Below are positions 1,194 to 11,311 of a stretch of DNA of 30,024 bases, one piece after another (within the stretch, counting starts at the first letter, position 1; the number at the start of each line of letters is the position of its first letter). Source of the DNA: Candidatus Helarchaeota archaeon (GTDB taxonomy: Archaea; Asgardarchaeota; Lokiarchaeia; Helarchaeales; RDOG01); assembly GCA_029838215.1 (NCBI GenBank), contig JALGVI010000038.1:1-30024 (forward strand). Direction: 5' to 3'. The translations under genes were made by a program, and so were the position numbers. A model generated the notes under the pieces. That model was not told the DNA's origin. It searched no databases and was given only the letters and a program-made list of their open reading frames with translations.

Positions 1194-1621
1194 ATACAAA
1201 TAAAATGACATGAATGGATATTGGTAGAGCTAATTATAGAATAACACTGTCATGTTCCCAAATATAGAAACATTAGCCGAAAAGAAAATGAATGATCAGG
1301 ATCTCAGAAAAGTTAAATGGTCGCTCGCAAATAAAATCGATTATTAATCTAAACCATCAATTGAGTGCAACAAAATAAAAAACTACTTTGTCTTCCCCAT
1401 CAACATTGCTCTATTCTTTCAAGTATTGATCAGTTGATAAAAATTTACTAGATTCTTCTGTAAAAATTAATAAAAATTGCTTTTAAAAAAATTTATAAAG
1501 AAATGCGGTGATTAGTTATCAAATTTGCAAATCTTTTTTTGGTCTAATAACAACCAAAAAAATGGTCATCTCAAGATTTGAGGATTATTATGAAATGATT
1601 TAAAAAACAGGTGTTTTTTAT

Positions 1622-3235
1622 ATGAGTTTAATTAAAACAACAAAAAGCCTTTGCCCTGAATGCAAAAAGGTAATAGATGCCGAAATAAAGGAAGTTAACG
1701 GCGAAGTTTACATGTACAAAACCTGCAAGGAACATGGGGATTTTGAGGATCTCTTGTCAATCAATGCAGAACATTTTAAATGGTCTCAACAATTCATGAT
1801 TGATGGTCAAAAGCCGGATCATACTTGCGTTCCAACAAAAAAAGGCTGTCCGTATGATTGTGGTTCCTGCCCTAATCACAAAAGTTCACCCGCAATTGCC
1901 ATCGTTGATGTTACTTATCGGTGCAATCTAAAATGTCCTATTTGCTTTGCCAATGCCGAAGCAAGAGGGTTAAATTATGAGCCCAGCTTTGATGAACTAG
2001 TGAGAATTTTTAGGCATTTTAGAGAAAACATCAAGCCACAACCGCCAATAGTTGCGATGTATGCTGGAGGAGAACCAACCATGCGAAAAGATCTTCCAGA
2101 ATTATTAACGGAATGTCTGAACATGGGCTATCAACAGCTGCAAATCGCAACAAATGGAATAAAATTGACAAATATTGATTATTTCCAAGAATTGATAGAT
2201 GCGGGAATGCCGAAAGGATCAAAAAATAACAGGACTCGAACGGTTCTTTACTTGCAATTTGACGGTCTTGAACCTGAAACTTACAAGAAGACCAGAGGCG
2301 TGGACTTATTAGACAAAAAACTGAAAGTTATTGAGAACGCAAGAGAATTAAATTATCCAAACGTCATACTCGTGCCTACAATAGCAAATGACGTGAACGC
2401 ACACGAAGTTACCAACATCCTTCAATTTGCAATAGATAATATAGATGTCATTAATACGATAATGTACCAACCAATTGCTCTATGTGGTCGATATGATAAA
2501 ACAAGATTAAAAGAATTGCGAATAACATCATCCCATCTTGCAAAAGATCTAATAGAGTATTCAAATGGTAAAGTGGGAAAGACTTATCCATTACCGACCA
2601 TTTCTAAATTTGCCAAGTGCATTGCGTGGTTAAATGATGAACCACCGGTCGAATTCACGTGTTCTGCAGATTGTGGCTTTGCAAATTTTATGCTCGTTGA
2701 TCCAAAAACCAAAGAATTGACGGGCATCGAAGAACTCTTTGATTCTGAAGAATTCTTACGGCGAGCTTCGAAATGGTATGAACGAATCGAACGCGAAAAA
2801 CGATGGGAACGTGAACAAAAGACCAAGCCTTCATTAATACAACGTGCTTTAGCAAGAGTTCGAAAAGATGCCATGAAAGCCAGAATGTTCGCAGATTTAT
2901 CTTTGGCAATTCGCGATCCTGCAATGGTAACTCAAAAGCTCTACACGCACTTCAAAGATTTAATATTCAAGACTTCATGGGAATCAAGTAGCAATTGGCT
3001 TGTAGATGGAAATATACTTCTTGTCGGACTAATGCATTTTCAAGACCTATATGATTTTGATCTCAATCGGGTTAGTCGTTGTTTGGTCCACTATGGATAC
3101 ATTGATCCCGCGACCAACCAAGTCAGGCAGGTGCCATTCTGCGCAATGAATGCAATTCATCGAGAACGAATAGAAGATGAATTACAAGCAGCCCATAAGA
3201 TCGTAGAATACGTTCCTGAAATTAAAACGCAATAA
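1622..3235 (+). CDS. tes: Radical SAM protein of the tetraether lipid synthase (Tes/GDGT-MAS, MJ0619-like) family
   Basis: N-terminal CPEC...CKEH metal site; GCPYDCGSCPNH auxiliary cluster motif; radical SAM CNLKCPIC; AGGEPT; ATNG; YLQFDG; C-terminal DCG, LMHFQD.Y.FD..RV.RC..HY and PFC..N..HR. This motif order matches MJ0619 as recalled. Tes versus a close paralog cannot be settled by eye. Confidence 0.8.
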   Translation: MSLIKTTKSLCPECKKVIDAEIKEVNGEVYMYKTCKEHGDFEDLLSINAEHFKWSQQFMIDGQKPDHTCVPTKKGCPYDCGSCPNHKSSPAIAIVDVTYRCNLKCPICFANAEARGLNYEPSFDELVRIFRHFRENIKPQPPIVAMYAGGEPTMRKDLPELLTECLNMGYQQLQIATNGIKLTNIDYFQELIDAGMPKGSKNNRTRTVLYLQFDGLEPETYKKTRGVDLLDKKLKVIENARELNYPNVILVPTIANDVNAHEVTNILQFAIDNIDVINTIMYQPIALCGRYDKTRLKELRITSSHLAKDLIEYSNGKVGKTYPLPTISKFAKCIAWLNDEPPVEFTCSADCGFANFMLVDPKTKELTGIEELFDSEEFLRRASKWYERIEREKRWEREQKTKPSLIQRALARVRKDAMKARMFADLSLAIRDPAMVTQKLYTHFKDLIFKTSWESSSNWLVDGNILLVGLMHFQDLYDFDLNRVSRCLVHYGYIDPATNQVRQVPFCAMNAIHRERIEDELQAAHKIVEYVPEIKTQ

Positions 3236-5283: not shown

Positions 5284-6762
5284 ATGAATAAACTTGAACT
5301 TATCGATCACTTCTTTCATCCAAAGAACATCACGTTAATTGGAGTCAGCCGGAATTTGATGGGGCCTTCGGGCATGATTTTGGGAAACATGTTGCGAAGC
5401 AATTACAAAGGACCATTGTACCTGATCAATCCCAAAGTGGAAGAAGGAAAGAAAATCCTAGGTAAGCCCGTAAAAAGGAGTTTAAACGAAATTGGAACGA
5501 ATCTTGACTTGGTTTTTGTCATCGTTCCATCAAGAATCGTACCTGAAGTCCTTGAGAATTGCGGTCAGCATAATGCTCGAGCCGTCGTGATCATTTCGGC
5601 GGGTTTTGCCGAGTCCATCAGTTATGATAAAGAAAAAATCGCATTACAGGACGAAACGGTACGGATTGCACGAAAAAACGGATTTGTTTTTGCAGGACCA
5701 AATTGCAACGGCATTTACAGCGACGCAATTTCATTAAATGCGATTTTTGGACCTCGCGTGCGATGTTTGTCGGGCAACATATCATACGTGACGAGAGGAG
5801 GTACTGCAGGGATCCATTCGCTGATTCAAACAAGAGTAAGGGGCATTGGAGTTTCAAAACTAATAAATCTCGGCGATTCAGCTTGTCTTAAAATCCAAGA
5901 TTTGATCGAGTATTATGGACAAGATCCTGAAACCAAAATCATCGGCGCCTATACGGAAGGATTTGATGATGGTAAATCGTTCATCAGTATTGTCGAGAAG
6001 GTCACGGCGAAAAAACCCGTGGTTTTTTATAAATCTGGAGAAACCATTGCAGGCCAGAGAGCTGCATTGAGCCACGTTGGTGCGATCGCCGGGAAATTTA
6101 GCAGCAGGATATTCGAAGGTGTGGCGAGCCAGGCAGGACTAATTCCCGTGGAGAGCATTGATGAATTAGTTGATGTATGCACGTCATTCATGATCACGCA
6201 CGTCCCAAAAGGAAGAAATGTCGGAATTATAACGCCTGCGGGAAGCTTCGGAGTCATGGCTTCCGATGCTTGTAATAAAGAAGGATTGAACGTTCCGCCT
6301 TTAAATCCCGAAACTCTTCAGAAGATTGACAGGCTTCTTCCAGAATATTGGAGTCATAATAATCCCGTGGATCTCACGGATTCAATGAATTTTTCTGTTT
6401 TTGGCAAGATCATCCGAATCGTCTTAGAAGAAGAAACTTTTGATGGTCTAATAATTTTATTTAGTGACATTTCAGATAATCAAGGAACTATCATGGATTT
6501 CAGCATTGGAGAAAATCTCGTGGATGAAAAGAGCATTAATTTTTTCGCTGATATAGTGAAACAACAAATAAAAAGAATTTCCCGTTATATTGAAAAAGTT
6601 CGAAAACCCGTTTTTTTTCTCGGACCCGTTCAAGCCCAAAATGGACTTCCCGATTTCCTACGTGAACATAAAATCATCGTTCTACCAGAATTTCGAAGAA
6701 TTGCAAGAACTTTCAGGGCACTCGTAAAGTGGAATGAATTAAAAAAGAAGATAAGACAATGA
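5284..6762 (+). CDS. ADP-forming acyl-CoA synthetase alpha-subunit-like protein (CoA-binding domain + ligase domains)
   Basis: FFHPKNITLIGVS, YLINPK, IISAGFAE, GPNCNG, INLGD, YTEG, KSG, phospho-His motif AALSHVGAIAG, HNNPVDLT. Start may be GTG 5275 or ATG 5284. Confidence 0.85.
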   Translation: MNKLELIDHFFHPKNITLIGVSRNLMGPSGMILGNMLRSNYKGPLYLINPKVEEGKKILGKPVKRSLNEIGTNLDLVFVIVPSRIVPEVLENCGQHNARAVVIISAGFAESISYDKEKIALQDETVRIARKNGFVFAGPNCNGIYSDAISLNAIFGPRVRCLSGNISYVTRGGTAGIHSLIQTRVRGIGVSKLINLGDSACLKIQDLIEYYGQDPETKIIGAYTEGFDDGKSFISIVEKVTAKKPVVFYKSGETIAGQRAALSHVGAIAGKFSSRIFEGVASQAGLIPVESIDELVDVCTSFMITHVPKGRNVGIITPAGSFGVMASDACNKEGLNVPPLNPETLQKIDRLLPEYWSHNNPVDLTDSMNFSVFGKIIRIVLEEETFDGLIILFSDISDNQGTIMDFSIGENLVDEKSINFFADIVKQQIKRISRYIEKVRKPVFFLGPVQAQNGLPDFLREHKIIVLPEFRRIARTFRALVKWNELKKKIRQ

Positions 6763-7950
6763 TTAGCTTTCAGCGAGTTTTTCTACAACTCGAATCGTTA
6801 ACCGTAAAACATCTTCAATTCCCTTTCTCGAAACCTTTGACATATCATCTGTTTTGGTATGCACGTCTTTCATTGCTCCCATTGATTCTAACCAGCAGGC
6901 CTCAAAACCCTTTTGAAGCACGGGCATGAAGTCGCTCCATGCACCCACGGGCAAATAGACATTCTCATATGGAATGTTTAGCTCTTCGGCAGATTCTTCA
7001 AAGAGTTTTTTCAAGCGTTTCGATGCAATTTTTCTAGGCAAGCCGTATGAAGTAACATTTCCAAGCTTAGCATCGGTTCCCACGCCATCAAAATTAATGA
7101 ATAACGTGTTTTCTTTATCAAGTTCGCTCTCGTGCTGTTTAATGAATGCCCTTGCACCACCTAAATTCAGTTCTTCAGATCCCGGAATTAGAAATATGAA
7201 ACTCAGGTTTTTTGGTTGATTTTCTTTAAAAAATCGCGCTAATTCCAAAACCACCGCAAGGCTCACGCCATTATCAATGGCACCCGGAGAATCGTTGCCA
7301 ATCTTGTTGAAGTAGTTAGCGGCTGCTAAAACAACAGTTATTAATGCGAAAATGAAGACTGTCAGATTTAATGCATTCCATGTCGGAGATGCAACCGGAT
7401 CCATCAAAAATAGGAACAGATTTAAATATTTGATGACTCCACCTATAAGAATGAGAACAGACGTGATTAATGCACCGAAGATAGTGCCTATTAATACAAT
7501 AACTCTTAATGTCAGCGGAAAGGTCTGACTTTTAGTATCATAATGACCCATGAAGACAATCACTTGTTTTGAAGAGTCGGTTTCGAGTTTTCCATATATA
7601 TTTTCCGTTGTATATTTCTTTCCAAATCCTCCTAAATTAATATCACCGGCTCGGGTGAAGCCCATGGTACCAGCAACAAAAACAAGACTTAGAATGCCAC
7701 TCAACCAAGGAATGATGAAAAATAAAATGGCTATTATAAATAAAACAATACCAAGTAATGGAATTAAGTATCTTGCCATGATCCAATTGGAGAAATCCGT
7801 CTGGAATGTCTCCGAGACAGGAGTATAACAAATTTTCTCGAATTCTTTTTTAATGAGAGATTGTGCTTTCTTCTCACCTTCAGACCCCACCAAACGCGGA
7901 AATGCTATTTGTTCCGTGATGCGAAAAGCATTTTCTACATCTATTGACAT
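6763..7950 (-). CDS. Membrane-anchored M28-family zinc peptidase
   Basis: FPRLVGSEGE, GHYDTK, DNGVSLAVVLELA, GSEELNLGG, NFDGVG, SDF, VHTKTDD; four hydrophobic segments; GGAGG SD upstream of the ATG. Confidence 0.85.
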   Translation of the reverse strand: MSIDVENAFRITEQIAFPRLVGSEGEKKAQSLIKKEFEKICYTPVSETFQTDFSNWIMARYLIPLLGIVLFIIAILFFIIPWLSGILSLVFVAGTMGFTRAGDINLGGFGKKYTTENIYGKLETDSSKQVIVFMGHYDTKSQTFPLTLRVIVLIGTIFGALITSVLILIGGVIKYLNLFLFLMDPVASPTWNALNLTVFIFALITVVLAAANYFNKIGNDSPGAIDNGVSLAVVLELARFFKENQPKNLSFIFLIPGSEELNLGGARAFIKQHESELDKENTLFINFDGVGTDAKLGNVTSYGLPRKIASKRLKKLFEESAEELNIPYENVYLPVGAWSDFMPVLQKGFEACWLESMGAMKDVHTKTDDMSKVSRKGIEDVLRLTIRVVEKLAES

Positions 7951-9412: not shown

Positions 9413-10147
9413 TTAATGAATATCGGAATGAAATGAGGAACTCATTTGCCATTCTTCATCATCTTCTCCGATAAAATCTGTTGTGACGCAATTATTTTTA
9501 AGATATTTCTTGAGGAAGCGTGTCGATTCCTTGTATTCGAGCTCGATCTGAGAATGAGGTCTAAATTCAATTGCAGATGTTCCCGAAAACAATTCATTAA
9601 ACTTCTCGACGCTTCTGACAACGCTGGATTCGGGCATTCTAACGATTCCGAACACGATGTAGGAAAAGAACTGCGTTCCATCAAGACTAAAATTTGCTAT
9701 ACGAAATAACTCAGATTGGGGGATGTTCTTGTTAAGCAACATGTTACGAATTTTAGGTTCGAATGAATCAAAACCAATAAACACGTTCAAGCGAGAAGGT
9801 TCCAAATTAGAAAATAAAGAACGGATTGAAATGCGGGTTATGAGTTCAGGACGGGTTTCGATTGAGAAGGATTTGTCTTTTACTAACGGCTTTAAATCTT
9901 GAATCGTTTTTTTTGGCAATTCAAAAAAAGATCCTCCATTAAAAACCTTGATTTCGGAAAGAGTGCTTAAATTTACTTTTGTACTTACATCGTTAATGAT
10001 TTTTTGATTGGTGTTGATGACTTTTTGACTATCAAAACTAGATTCTAACGAAAAATTACAATGATGGCAATTATTCCAACGACAGGGTGGTCCCATTAAA
10101 ATCAACAATAATTGGGTTCCATCTTTTTTCAGCCACCAGCCCAGCAT
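9413..10147 (-). CDS. Short RaSEA-like radical SAM protein (archaeosine pathway family)
   Basis: LLLILMGPPCRWNNCHHC (Cx4Cx2C), IKVFNGGSFFELP, IETRPELIT, IGFDS...IRNMLLNK. These follow the order of the RaSEA motifs (IILRTRGC.W...C.MC, KIFTSGSF, VESRPE, IGLET...INK). The ATG overlaps the upstream stop. Confidence 0.65.
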   Translation of the reverse strand: MLGWWLKKDGTQLLLILMGPPCRWNNCHHCNFSLESSFDSQKVINTNQKIINDVSTKVNLSTLSEIKVFNGGSFFELPKKTIQDLKPLVKDKSFSIETRPELITRISIRSLFSNLEPSRLNVFIGFDSFEPKIRNMLLNKNIPQSELFRIANFSLDGTQFFSYIVFGIVRMPESSVVRSVEKFNELFSGTSAIEFRPHSQIELEYKESTRFLKKYLKNNCVTTDFIGEDDEEWQMSSSFHSDIH

Positions 10148-10767
10148 TACAAAAACCGCTTCAAATTATCAGTTAAATGATTTAGATTTCGAGCAACGAT
10201 TAAATAAATATCGTGGTCATCATAGAAACCAAGTGAGATTTGTTCATATTCTTCTTGCGTGATTTCACGTTCAGGAAGGGAAAAATTTGGAATCAAAATC
10301 CCCAACTTTTCTTCAACCTGCTGAATGACCTTGTACGATTCGCTTTCATGCCGCAAATAACAACAAAATCTTGAATAATACTTACGTTTTGTTTCAAGAA
10401 ATTCAATTAATCGTCTTTCAAGAATTTCAATGTATGCTTGCTTGATAGTATCAGTTTCCAGATTTGGATCCCAGTCATAGCTAAAATAGGGATAATCATC
10501 AGTCAACTCGTAAGGTATCACGCCAGCATTGGTTAATACGATGAGTCCAAGCTTTGATAAAAAACCATTTTGAATTAGACTACGCAAGATAAAATAGTGA
10601 ATGTAGGATTGGCGATATGGTTTGCCCCATGAACACACGGTAAATAGGGCTACTTTTTCTTCTTCAGGAATGTATTCTTTAATGATTTTTTCGTGCGCAC
10701 GGTTAAAAATTTCGTTATCAGTGTAATCTTTCCCCACGCCTTTCAAGAAAAATAATGGTTCTGGCAT
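10147..10767 (-). CDS. Stand-alone ArcS catalytic-domain (DUF5591-like) protein lacking PUA domain
   Basis: ALFTVCSWGKPYRQS (ArcS LLPCS..KPYS.S), LIVLTNAGVIPYEL..YP...YD (ArcS IVTSPLGVVPRELE..YP...YD); only 206 aa. Confidence 0.7.
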   Translation of the reverse strand: MPEPLFFLKGVGKDYTDNEIFNRAHEKIIKEYIPEEEKVALFTVCSWGKPYRQSYIHYFILRSLIQNGFLSKLGLIVLTNAGVIPYELTDDYPYFSYDWDPNLETDTIKQAYIEILERRLIEFLETKRKYYSRFCCYLRHESESYKVIQQVEEKLGILIPNFSLPEREITQEEYEQISLGFYDDHDIYLIVARNLNHLTDNLKRFL

Positions 10768-10792: not shown

Positions 10793-11200
10793 TTAGAGAT
10801 TTGGATATTTTAGTTTCAGAATTCGAATTGCTAAATACGCAGCATTTTGCCCATTATCAATACCAACCGTGGCGACAGGAACGCCTTTTGGCATTTGAAC
10901 TATTGAAAGCAAAGCATCCAGTCCACCCAATTTCGAACTCACGGGAACACCAATAACAGGTTTTGATACTTTTGAGGCAACAACACCTGGTAATGCTGCA
11001 GATAAACCTGCAATGGTAATGTAGACATCACTTGACGACTCTTGCAAATATTTGTCGAGTTCATCGGGATTCCGGTGAGCAGAAATGATCTTGCTTTCAT
11101 ATTTAATTTTATATTCATCTAACACTAGTGTCACTTTGTCTAATATGGGCTGATCGGTTTTAGAACCGATAATTATGGAAATAAATGGTTCTTCTGTCAT
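10793..11200 (-). CDS. purE: N5-carboxyaminoimidazole ribonucleotide mutase
   Basis: [65 protein letters not shown]. Start reassigned from 11269 to ATG 11200, which follows a GGTGG SD. Confidence 0.95.
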
Positions 11201-11311
11201 GGCAATTCCACCTTTTGATTCCTTTTTTGATAAGAATAATATTAAAGTTCTTTTGATGTTTATATTCAAACAAAATCTTCAATTCCGACCAGTCAAGGTG
11301 TCCAAGTATCC

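Follow-up and report, generated by a model that had tools for sequence, protein, structure and literature searches.

A stand-alone ArcS catalytic core coupled to a QueL-related radical SAM protein: a candidate minimal archaeosine synthase in a Helarchaeota archaeon

The closest described counterparts of the gene pair reported here are ArcS and RaSEA of Euryarchaeota. In Thermococcus kodakarensis, ArcS shows activity only when complexed with RaSEA (PMC11298593; the complex is the work of Yokogawa, 2019, as cited there), it does not need the L-shape of tRNA, and it accepts both the nucleoside of the deazaguanine nitrile preQ0 and the 5'-phosphate of that nucleoside, the latter with a very high Km of 433 uM (PMC11298593). 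Parts of this machinery recur elsewhere, as a stand-alone C1 domain of ArcS (ArcS2) has already been published from some archaea and phages (PMC10516641), and a bacterial queuine lyase, QueL, serves the salvage pathway of Clostridioides difficile (Yuan, 2019, as cited in PMC11130926 and PMC11570991). Here we describe two overlapping genes in a stretch of 30,024 nucleotides from a Candidatus Helarchaeota archaeon (assembly GCA_029838215.1, contig JALGVI010000038.1, positions 1 to 30,024; hereafter the window), which encode a 206-AA protein that corresponds to the ArcS catalytic core (mini-ArcS) and a 244-AA radical S-adenosylmethionine (SAM) protein. The reading that we favour, with moderate confidence, is that the pair forms a minimal two-step synthase of the ArcS/RaSEA type that makes the formamidine of archaeosine and replaces a lost operon of the long form.

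The mini-ArcS gene lies on the minus strand at 10147..10767, and its product contains FTVCSWGKPYRQSYIHY. It matches the Pfam family PF17884 (DUF5591) above the cut-off (E 4.5e-10; 40 bits against 26), and the Pfam scan found no further domain in it, so that the TGT-like N-terminal domain, the C2 domain and the PUA domain are all missing. While ArcS proteins measure some 575–780 AA, the alignment of the 206-AA window protein to the ArcS model is confined to the C1 region, positions 280-407 of 575. The published C1 signature, PCX3KPYX2SX2H (PMC10516641, PMC5699537), is present as VCSWGKPYRQSYIH, with the leading proline replaced by valine; the catalytic motif C45-x3-K49-P50-Y51-x2-S54-x2-H57 occupies 10597..10635 (minus strand). 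Across 16 members of the mini-ArcS family C45, G48, K49, P50, Y51, Q53, S54 and H57 are invariant, and the leading position holds valine in the Asgard members and proline in the Thermoproteota-labelled and virus-context members. The sole significant match among structures in the PDB, by sequence and by fold alike, is the ArcS-like protein AF0587 (2Q07; fold E 8.5e-5). A first-pass annotation made from the letters alone had already described this protein as an ArcS core with its conserved cysteine and without PUA, and both statements are borne out.

Homologues of mini-ArcS form 23 clusters of about 208 AA, and the close ones come from metagenome-assembled genomes labelled Helarchaeota, Lokiarchaeota or Hodarchaeota. 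The family has motifs of its own, YDW(D/N), LET..IK and C(Y/F)L(R/K)..S.S, which are missing from the long Asgard ArcS aligned with it, and on these sequence grounds we regard mini-ArcS as a distinct DUF5591 subfamily. It resembles ArcS2 of viruses such as Vibrio phage nt-1 and Sulfolobus virus STSV2 in consisting of the C1 core alone, at about 200 AA, and in carrying the same motif (PMC10516641); yet identity to ArcS2 is only about 31–33%. In viral genomes the partner of ArcS2 is DpdA, whereas the window gene is chromosomal, stands among housekeeping genes and is coupled to a radical SAM enzyme.

That enzyme is encoded directly downstream on the same strand (9413..10147). The plus strand reads CATTA at 10145-10149, i.e. 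TAATG on the coding strand (10145..10149, minus), with the stop codon of the first gene and the start codon of the second sharing one base; the translational coupling noted from the sequence is thus real. Both open reading frames (ORFs) are genuine genes, since each has clusters of homologues of the same length with many invariant residues (23 clusters for mini-ArcS and 9 for the radical SAM protein) and each gives a confident AlphaFold2 model (mean pLDDT 88.3 and 88.6, respectively). The radical SAM protein contains PPCRWNNCHHCNF, a Cx4Cx2C cluster motif (C22-x4-C27-x2-C30, CRWNNCHHC, at 10058..10084, minus strand), of which all three cysteines are invariant in the mini clade; an FNGGSF motif is also present, and the AlphaFold2 model has a radical SAM fold. 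No Pfam family matched it. In a survey of cluster spacing, Cx4Cx2C was common to the window clade, QueL and some RaSEA-like proteins; canonical RaSEA carries CxWAxxxGGCxMC, with a gap of 8-9, and the QueL structure 6P78 reads CIWGKCSFC.

The nearest solved structure is this queuine lyase, 6P78, from Clostridium spiroforme. It is the one structure that the clade profile matches strongly (87 bits, E 1e-23; the single window sequence scores 54 bits), whereas the canonical RaSEA P0044, which reaches 376 bits against the RaSEA model TIGR01210, scores only 31 bits against it. Foldseek likewise placed 6P78 first for the predicted model, over its full length (E 2e-11, TM 0.72/0.76, 239 columns), the runners-up being generic radical SAM enzymes at E values of about 1e-5. 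The two proteins also share a length of about 245–251 AA, the Cx4Cx2C cluster and a GSFFELP motif, and the window enzyme would be expected, like QueL, to act as a C–N lyase on a 7-substituted 7-deazaguanine. The clade itself is small: when 1.8 billion representatives were searched exhaustively with its profile, about five full-length ones scored above 240 bits, followed by a sharp fall to 97 bits or less. Below that gap lie RaSEA-like proteins (about 320–400 AA), domain fusions, and short proteins (about 215–250 AA); two of the short ones score 144 and 190 bits against 6P78 and hence belong on the QueL side. The description of the 244-AA protein as RaSEA-type therefore needs amending; its cluster motif and its superfamily stand, but by sequence, fold and trees it is nearer to QueL, a kinship that the first-pass annotation had not considered.

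The same partnership is found well beyond the window. In the sister genome G255 the two genes (1489..2124 and 2124..2849 of L031) have the same one-base overlap. In a Lokiarchaeota-labelled genome (L015), the DUF5591 gene, a 132-AA ORF and the radical SAM gene follow one another, with QueA, QueH and QueD within 5 kb; the intervening ORF (6734-7132) belongs to no family and has no counterpart in the window. On two contigs labelled Crenarchaeota/Thermoproteota (L016, L017), the two genes are split by one gene on the opposite strand. The contig of P0032 has DUF5591, radical SAM and Vut_1/QPTR genes in a row, with a four-base overlap, beside a gene for a tRNA-guanine transglycosylase (TGT) of 352 AA that is divergent from the pair, and the contig of P0034 carries Vut_1, the radical SAM gene and DUF5591. 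Linkage of the pair is thus conserved across phyla. On the QueL side of the tree, the basal member P0050 has a gene of the mini-ArcS subfamily two genes away, while none was found near two other members that were checked.

In Altiarchaeota, the same subfamily occurs within single chains of 432-462 AA (P0181-P0183), in which DUF5591 is fused with a short radical SAM domain of the Cx4Cx2C type; these fusions are Rosetta-stone evidence for the pairing. The DUF5591 part is 39% identical to the window protein (E 5e-36) and has the three subfamily motifs. Unlike the window pair, these proteins are one polypeptide with the radical SAM domain first, and their radical SAM half falls on the RaSEA-like side of the tree and not in the window clade. 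It follows from this placement that the mini-ArcS subfamily teams up with short radical SAM enzymes of more than a single descent, and that the minimal architecture arose at least twice, from different radical SAM lineages. We know of no experimental study of these fusions. Genes of 528-559 AA lie just upstream of them at two loci and were considered as TgtA, but gave no NCBIfam match.

Members of either family also occur in other company. One cluster (L054 287-2372) holds a DUF5591 gene of the mini-ArcS subfamily, a GT2 glycosyltransferase and the QueL-side radical SAM gene P0050, an arrangement that hints at a glycosylated 7-deazaguanine product. A virus-like contig (L042 3377-5633) carries QueC, a class I/II aminotransferase and the DUF5591 gene P0023, 35% identical to the window protein, in the surroundings of genes for DnaB, primase, DNA polymerase A and dNK; the arrangement is that of an ArcS2-type cluster for DNA modification to which an aminotransferase belongs. 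RaSEA-like matches of about 500–750 AA were considered as further DUF5591 fusions and rejected, as they carry TIR, SIR2, NDK, DUF6190 or response-regulator domains instead. Among them, P0083, P0086 and P0088 have an N-terminal TIR domain and P0052 an N-terminal SIR2 domain ahead of the RaSEA-like part, architectures reminiscent of anti-phage defence effectors.

The source genome (G000) measures 3.6 Mb and is 94% complete. It has exactly one DUF5591 gene, that of mini-ArcS, and a search for RaSEA gave no match that reached the cut-off. A bona fide TgtA (arcTGT) is present (543 AA; 501 bits against a cut-off of 350), as are QueD and an unfused QueC without glutamine amidotransferase fusion; the preQ0 pathway is documented by these two genes. 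Neither long ArcS nor canonical RaSEA, QueF-L or Gat-QueC was found in the assembly. Since TgtA, QueC and QueD are there and the others are not, this genome has the step that precedes archaeosine formation without the three known finishing enzymes, long ArcS, QueF-L and Gat-QueC. A survey of the related genes thus returned tgtA, queC and queD but not full-length arcS or raSEA.

Taxonomic distribution is consistent with a replacement. Within a sample of 250 genomes of the phylum, a RaSEA-like gene is present in 183 other genomes, its open frame typically about 350–400 AA long and its score 50–90 bits, and the mini radical SAM form occurs in the source genome only (362 bits). Long ArcS, of about 700–800 AA, is present in all 34 sampled Lokiarchaeia genomes of two families (f3 and f4), and at the loci examined there it is adjacent to or overlaps a RaSEA-like gene of about 370 AA, with arcS first and raSEA second. 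In gene order and coupling the mini pair matches these long operons, and its genome also holds TgtA and preQ0 genes. All seven genomes of the order to which the window belongs have kept TgtA and are missing long ArcS and the RaSEA-like gene. Within this order, the mini pair is limited to one family (f1; the source genome and its sister G255); in the other five genomes (G240, G254, G251, G252, G253) we found neither long ArcS nor a RaSEA-like gene nor the mini pair, QueF-L and Gat-QueC not having been searched for there. The simplest history is that the long operon was lost in the order and that the mini pair was then gained in one family. This gain was probably by horizontal transfer; the nearest relatives of the pair are scattered among contigs labelled Thermoproteota or unlabelled.

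By analogy with the T. kodakarensis enzymes, the following scheme may be proposed. TgtA, encoded elsewhere in the genome, would put preQ0 at G15 of tRNA. Through its Cys/Lys/Tyr/Ser/His motif, the DUF5591 protein would attach an amine to the preQ0 nitrile, with the epsilon-amine of lysine as the likeliest donor, giving an N-alkyl amidine, and the coupled radical SAM enzyme would cleave the C–N bond to leave the free formamidine, i.e. the archaeosine base. The two proteins may do so as a complex and, in the simplest case, on preQ0-tRNA although they have no RNA-binding domains of their own; the chemistry, the donor, the complex and the physical form of the substrate are all inferred for this pair. 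A complex prediction for the two proteins returned a score of 0.00 and no verdict, and counts neither for nor against binding. From the missing PUA the first-pass annotation inferred that the pair may recognise tRNA differently, need a separate adaptor, or act on free base, nucleotide or DNA; the absence is real, but the loss is less radical than this supposes, and a core without PUA is plausible in view of the characterized enzyme, as T. kodakarensis ArcS needs no L-shape and accepts preQ0 nucleoside (PMC11298593). A stripped-down archaeosine module, one of the interpretations offered from the sequence alone, accordingly remains the best reading, because an ArcS core and a partner from the RaSEA superfamily form a conserved pair in a genome with tgtA, queC and queD and without full-length ArcS or RaSEA, and the pair is probably a stripped-down replacement of the long operon.

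A number of observations nevertheless weigh against this reading. Both proteins fall far below the equivalog cut-offs for ArcS and RaSEA: mini-ArcS scores 27.6 and 28.1 bits against the NCBIfam models NF040592 and NF053620, where 440 and 600 are needed, and the best NCBIfam match of the radical SAM protein, TIGR01210 (RaSEA), reaches 40.5 bits (E 1.9e-10) against a cut-off of 212 and covers model positions 14-159 of 313 only. At 244 AA, against about 330–400 AA in RaSEA, the latter protein is missing the C-terminal third, and it has Cx4Cx2C in place of CxWAxxxGGCxMC. No RNA-binding domain is present in either protein, and their isoelectric points (5.1 and 7.0) are acidic to neutral, unlike the basic values (8.4-9.5) of canonical RaSEA, for which four proteins were checked. 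Three archaeal contigs, two of them with DUF5591, have the queuosine-precursor transporter Vut_1/QPTR beside the radical SAM gene or overlapping it, an adjacency that would also fit action on imported free bases. Finally, the radical SAM protein groups by sequence with QueL, a C–N lyase that acts on a free base. In trees of 144 core domains (FastTree) and of 67 (IQ-TREE, LG+C20 PMSF), the window clade joins the QueL side, apart from all RaSEA-like subclades (SH-like 99 and SH-aLRT 99, respectively).

The relationship to QueL should, however, be read with its limits. The mini clade is separate from the QueL clade proper, the two being sister clades (97 versus 99 in IQ-TREE), and the window protein scores 54 bits against 6P78 where QueL-side members score 144-190. 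Both trees are unrooted, and a root on the QueL branch would weaken the sister relationship. As judged from sequence and predicted structure, then, the radical SAM protein is a member of a small clade sister to bacterial QueL and not a typical RaSEA. At five positions (R99, P100, E101, Y163, E173) the mini clade agrees with the RaSEA-like and fusion proteins and not with the QueL side, which in 73% of rows has histidine at position 99 and is not strongly conserved at 100, 101, 163 and 173. The pattern hints at a RaSEA-like substrate retained by the mini clade, with QueL as the derived form. Unlike bacterial QueL as published, moreover, the window enzyme is archaeal and coupled to an ArcS core, with no QueK or QueT adjacent.

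The lack of RNA-binding domains, the near-neutral to acidic isoelectric points and the transporter adjacency are among the grounds for a first alternative, that the same chemistry takes place on a free base or nucleoside, turning free preQ0 into archaeosine base or a related amidine before the transglycosylase acts, or recycling bases from tRNA turnover. It gains further from QueL, the nearest characterized relative, having been crystallised with free queuine (6P78). We nevertheless think this unlikely: no Vut_1 was found in the source genome, which is 94% complete and has its own QueC and QueD, and the transporter adjacency also fits operon clustering of a tRNA-level pathway. TgtA would, in addition, need to accept the amidine base. 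Older work on Haloferax volcanii reportedly found that TgtA does not do so. T. kodakarensis ArcS does accept preQ0 nucleoside, yet its Km of 433 uM for the nucleotide is very high (PMC11298593). In its broadest form, this alternative would make the pair a metabolite-level system that forms or recycles archaeosine base or another N-substituted 7-amidino-7-deazaguanine, and would see in it the ancestral DUF5591-linked lineage from which QueL arose by loss of the partner and a switch of substrate; this, too, we hold doubtful. If true, it would mean that the base is finished before a transglycosylase inserts it in tRNA, or in DNA with a DpdA-like paralog.

The presence of a preQ1-using Tgt in this archaeon makes it conceivable that the radical SAM protein is a true queuine lyase. 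Besides TgtA, it encodes a bacterial-type G34 Tgt, unusual for an archaeon (377 AA; 428 bits against a cut-off of 307). On contig C134 a true QueF with an ESKSLKLY motif, the sole QueF of the genome (L014 1273-1821, plus strand), lies directly upstream of this Tgt (L005 1465-2598, plus strand), and QueC is 7 kb away, which places a bacterial-type queuosine module beside the archaeal TgtA. A lyase feeding preQ1 to this Tgt, with DUF5591 as an accessory or in a different role, would agree with the sister relationship to QueL, the full-length fold match to 6P78, the identical cluster spacing and length, and the presence of QueA and QueH near the pair in relatives and of QPTR beside the radical SAM gene in other archaea. 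Such a role would leave unexplained why an ArcS core accompanies the gene, coupled or close by, in almost every context seen, for ArcS chemistry concerns the preQ0 nitrile and not queuine; the five conserved mini-clade positions also follow RaSEA-like proteins, the window protein is outside the QueL clade proper, QueK and QueT are not adjacent, and the organism can make preQ1 de novo. We consider queuine salvage quite improbable.

Still further from what we observe, and in our opinion highly improbable, is DNA modification, in which mini-ArcS would act like phage ArcS2 on dPreQ0 placed by a DpdA-like transglycosylase, converting it to dG+ or another derivative. Stand-alone DUF5591 does act in phage DNA modification (PMC10516641), P0023 stands among QueC, aminotransferase and replication genes in a virus-like contig, and window mini-ArcS shares 31% identity, along the whole protein, with ORF75 of Methanobacterium virus PhiF1. 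Transglycosylase candidates also exist in the 352-AA TGT of the P0032 contig and in a divergent 343-AA TGT paralog of the source genome that matches DpdA weakly. Neither dpdA nor any defence or viral gene was found in the flanks of the pair within the window, however, and PADLOC gave no match for either protein. The radical SAM partner had no match in the phage collection either, from which it follows that the phage systems do without it, and the pair stands in for a lost tRNA-pathway operon with the same gene order. The 343-AA paralog, the sole DpdA-like candidate of the source genome, is on another contig and is also found in G252, where the pair was not found.

This paralog (contig C89, L007 958-1986, plus strand) is followed by a coupled ORF (1986-2747, plus strand) of 253 AA that belongs to no family. 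Its matches are weak throughout (TgtA 41 bits, ArcS N domain 39 bits, DpdA 23.8 bits in PADLOC), and G255 and G252 have orthologues. A DpdA-like DNA transglycosylase and a new offshoot of the TGT family are both conceivable identities for it. Considered as a split-off ArcS N domain or a linked DpdA, it was rejected as a dedicated partner: the matches are weak, its neighbours belong to no family, it is dissimilar to the genes without known family near the pair in other lineages, and it occurs in G252, where the pair was not found. The genome also has a stand-alone protein of about 165 AA (G000:C130:33680-34123, minus strand) that matches C-terminal positions 443-574 of the ArcS model. Equivalents occur in most sampled Lokiarchaeia genomes, with or without long ArcS, and the protein is therefore no particular feature of the mini system, though conceivable as an RNA-binding helper.

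The immediate surroundings of the pair in the window are housekeeping in character, comprising purE, GNAT, methyltransferase, M28 peptidase and DRG-type GTPase genes. The purE gene (AIR carboxylase; PF00731, E 9e-49) lies at 10793..11269 on the same strand, 25 nucleotides upstream of the mini-ArcS gene, and is possibly co-transcribed with the pair. We regard it as context only and outside the system; the linkage is absent from G255, whose gene upstream of the pair runs on the other strand.

Stand-alone C1-domain ArcS in some archaea and phages (PMC10516641), RaSEA and QueL are each already known. What we did not find in the literature searched is the pairing of mini-ArcS with a radical SAM protein from the sister clade of QueL, the replacement of the canonical operon in an Asgard lineage, or a bridge between RaSEA and QueL. 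If the pair does make archaeosine, it would be the smallest known form of ArcS/RaSEA, totalling about 450 residues and free of RNA-binding domains, and could provide a convenient model for substrate recognition and for the unsolved step of radical C–N cleavage.

The intermediate clade, with its ArcS core, links archaeal RaSEA and bacterial QueL, which are treated apart in the literature searched, and it suggests how the chemistry of queuine salvage may have evolved from archaeosine synthesis, or the reverse. For the annotation of archaeal genomes, it means that archaea scored as being without ArcS and RaSEA by equivalog models may still make archaeosine.

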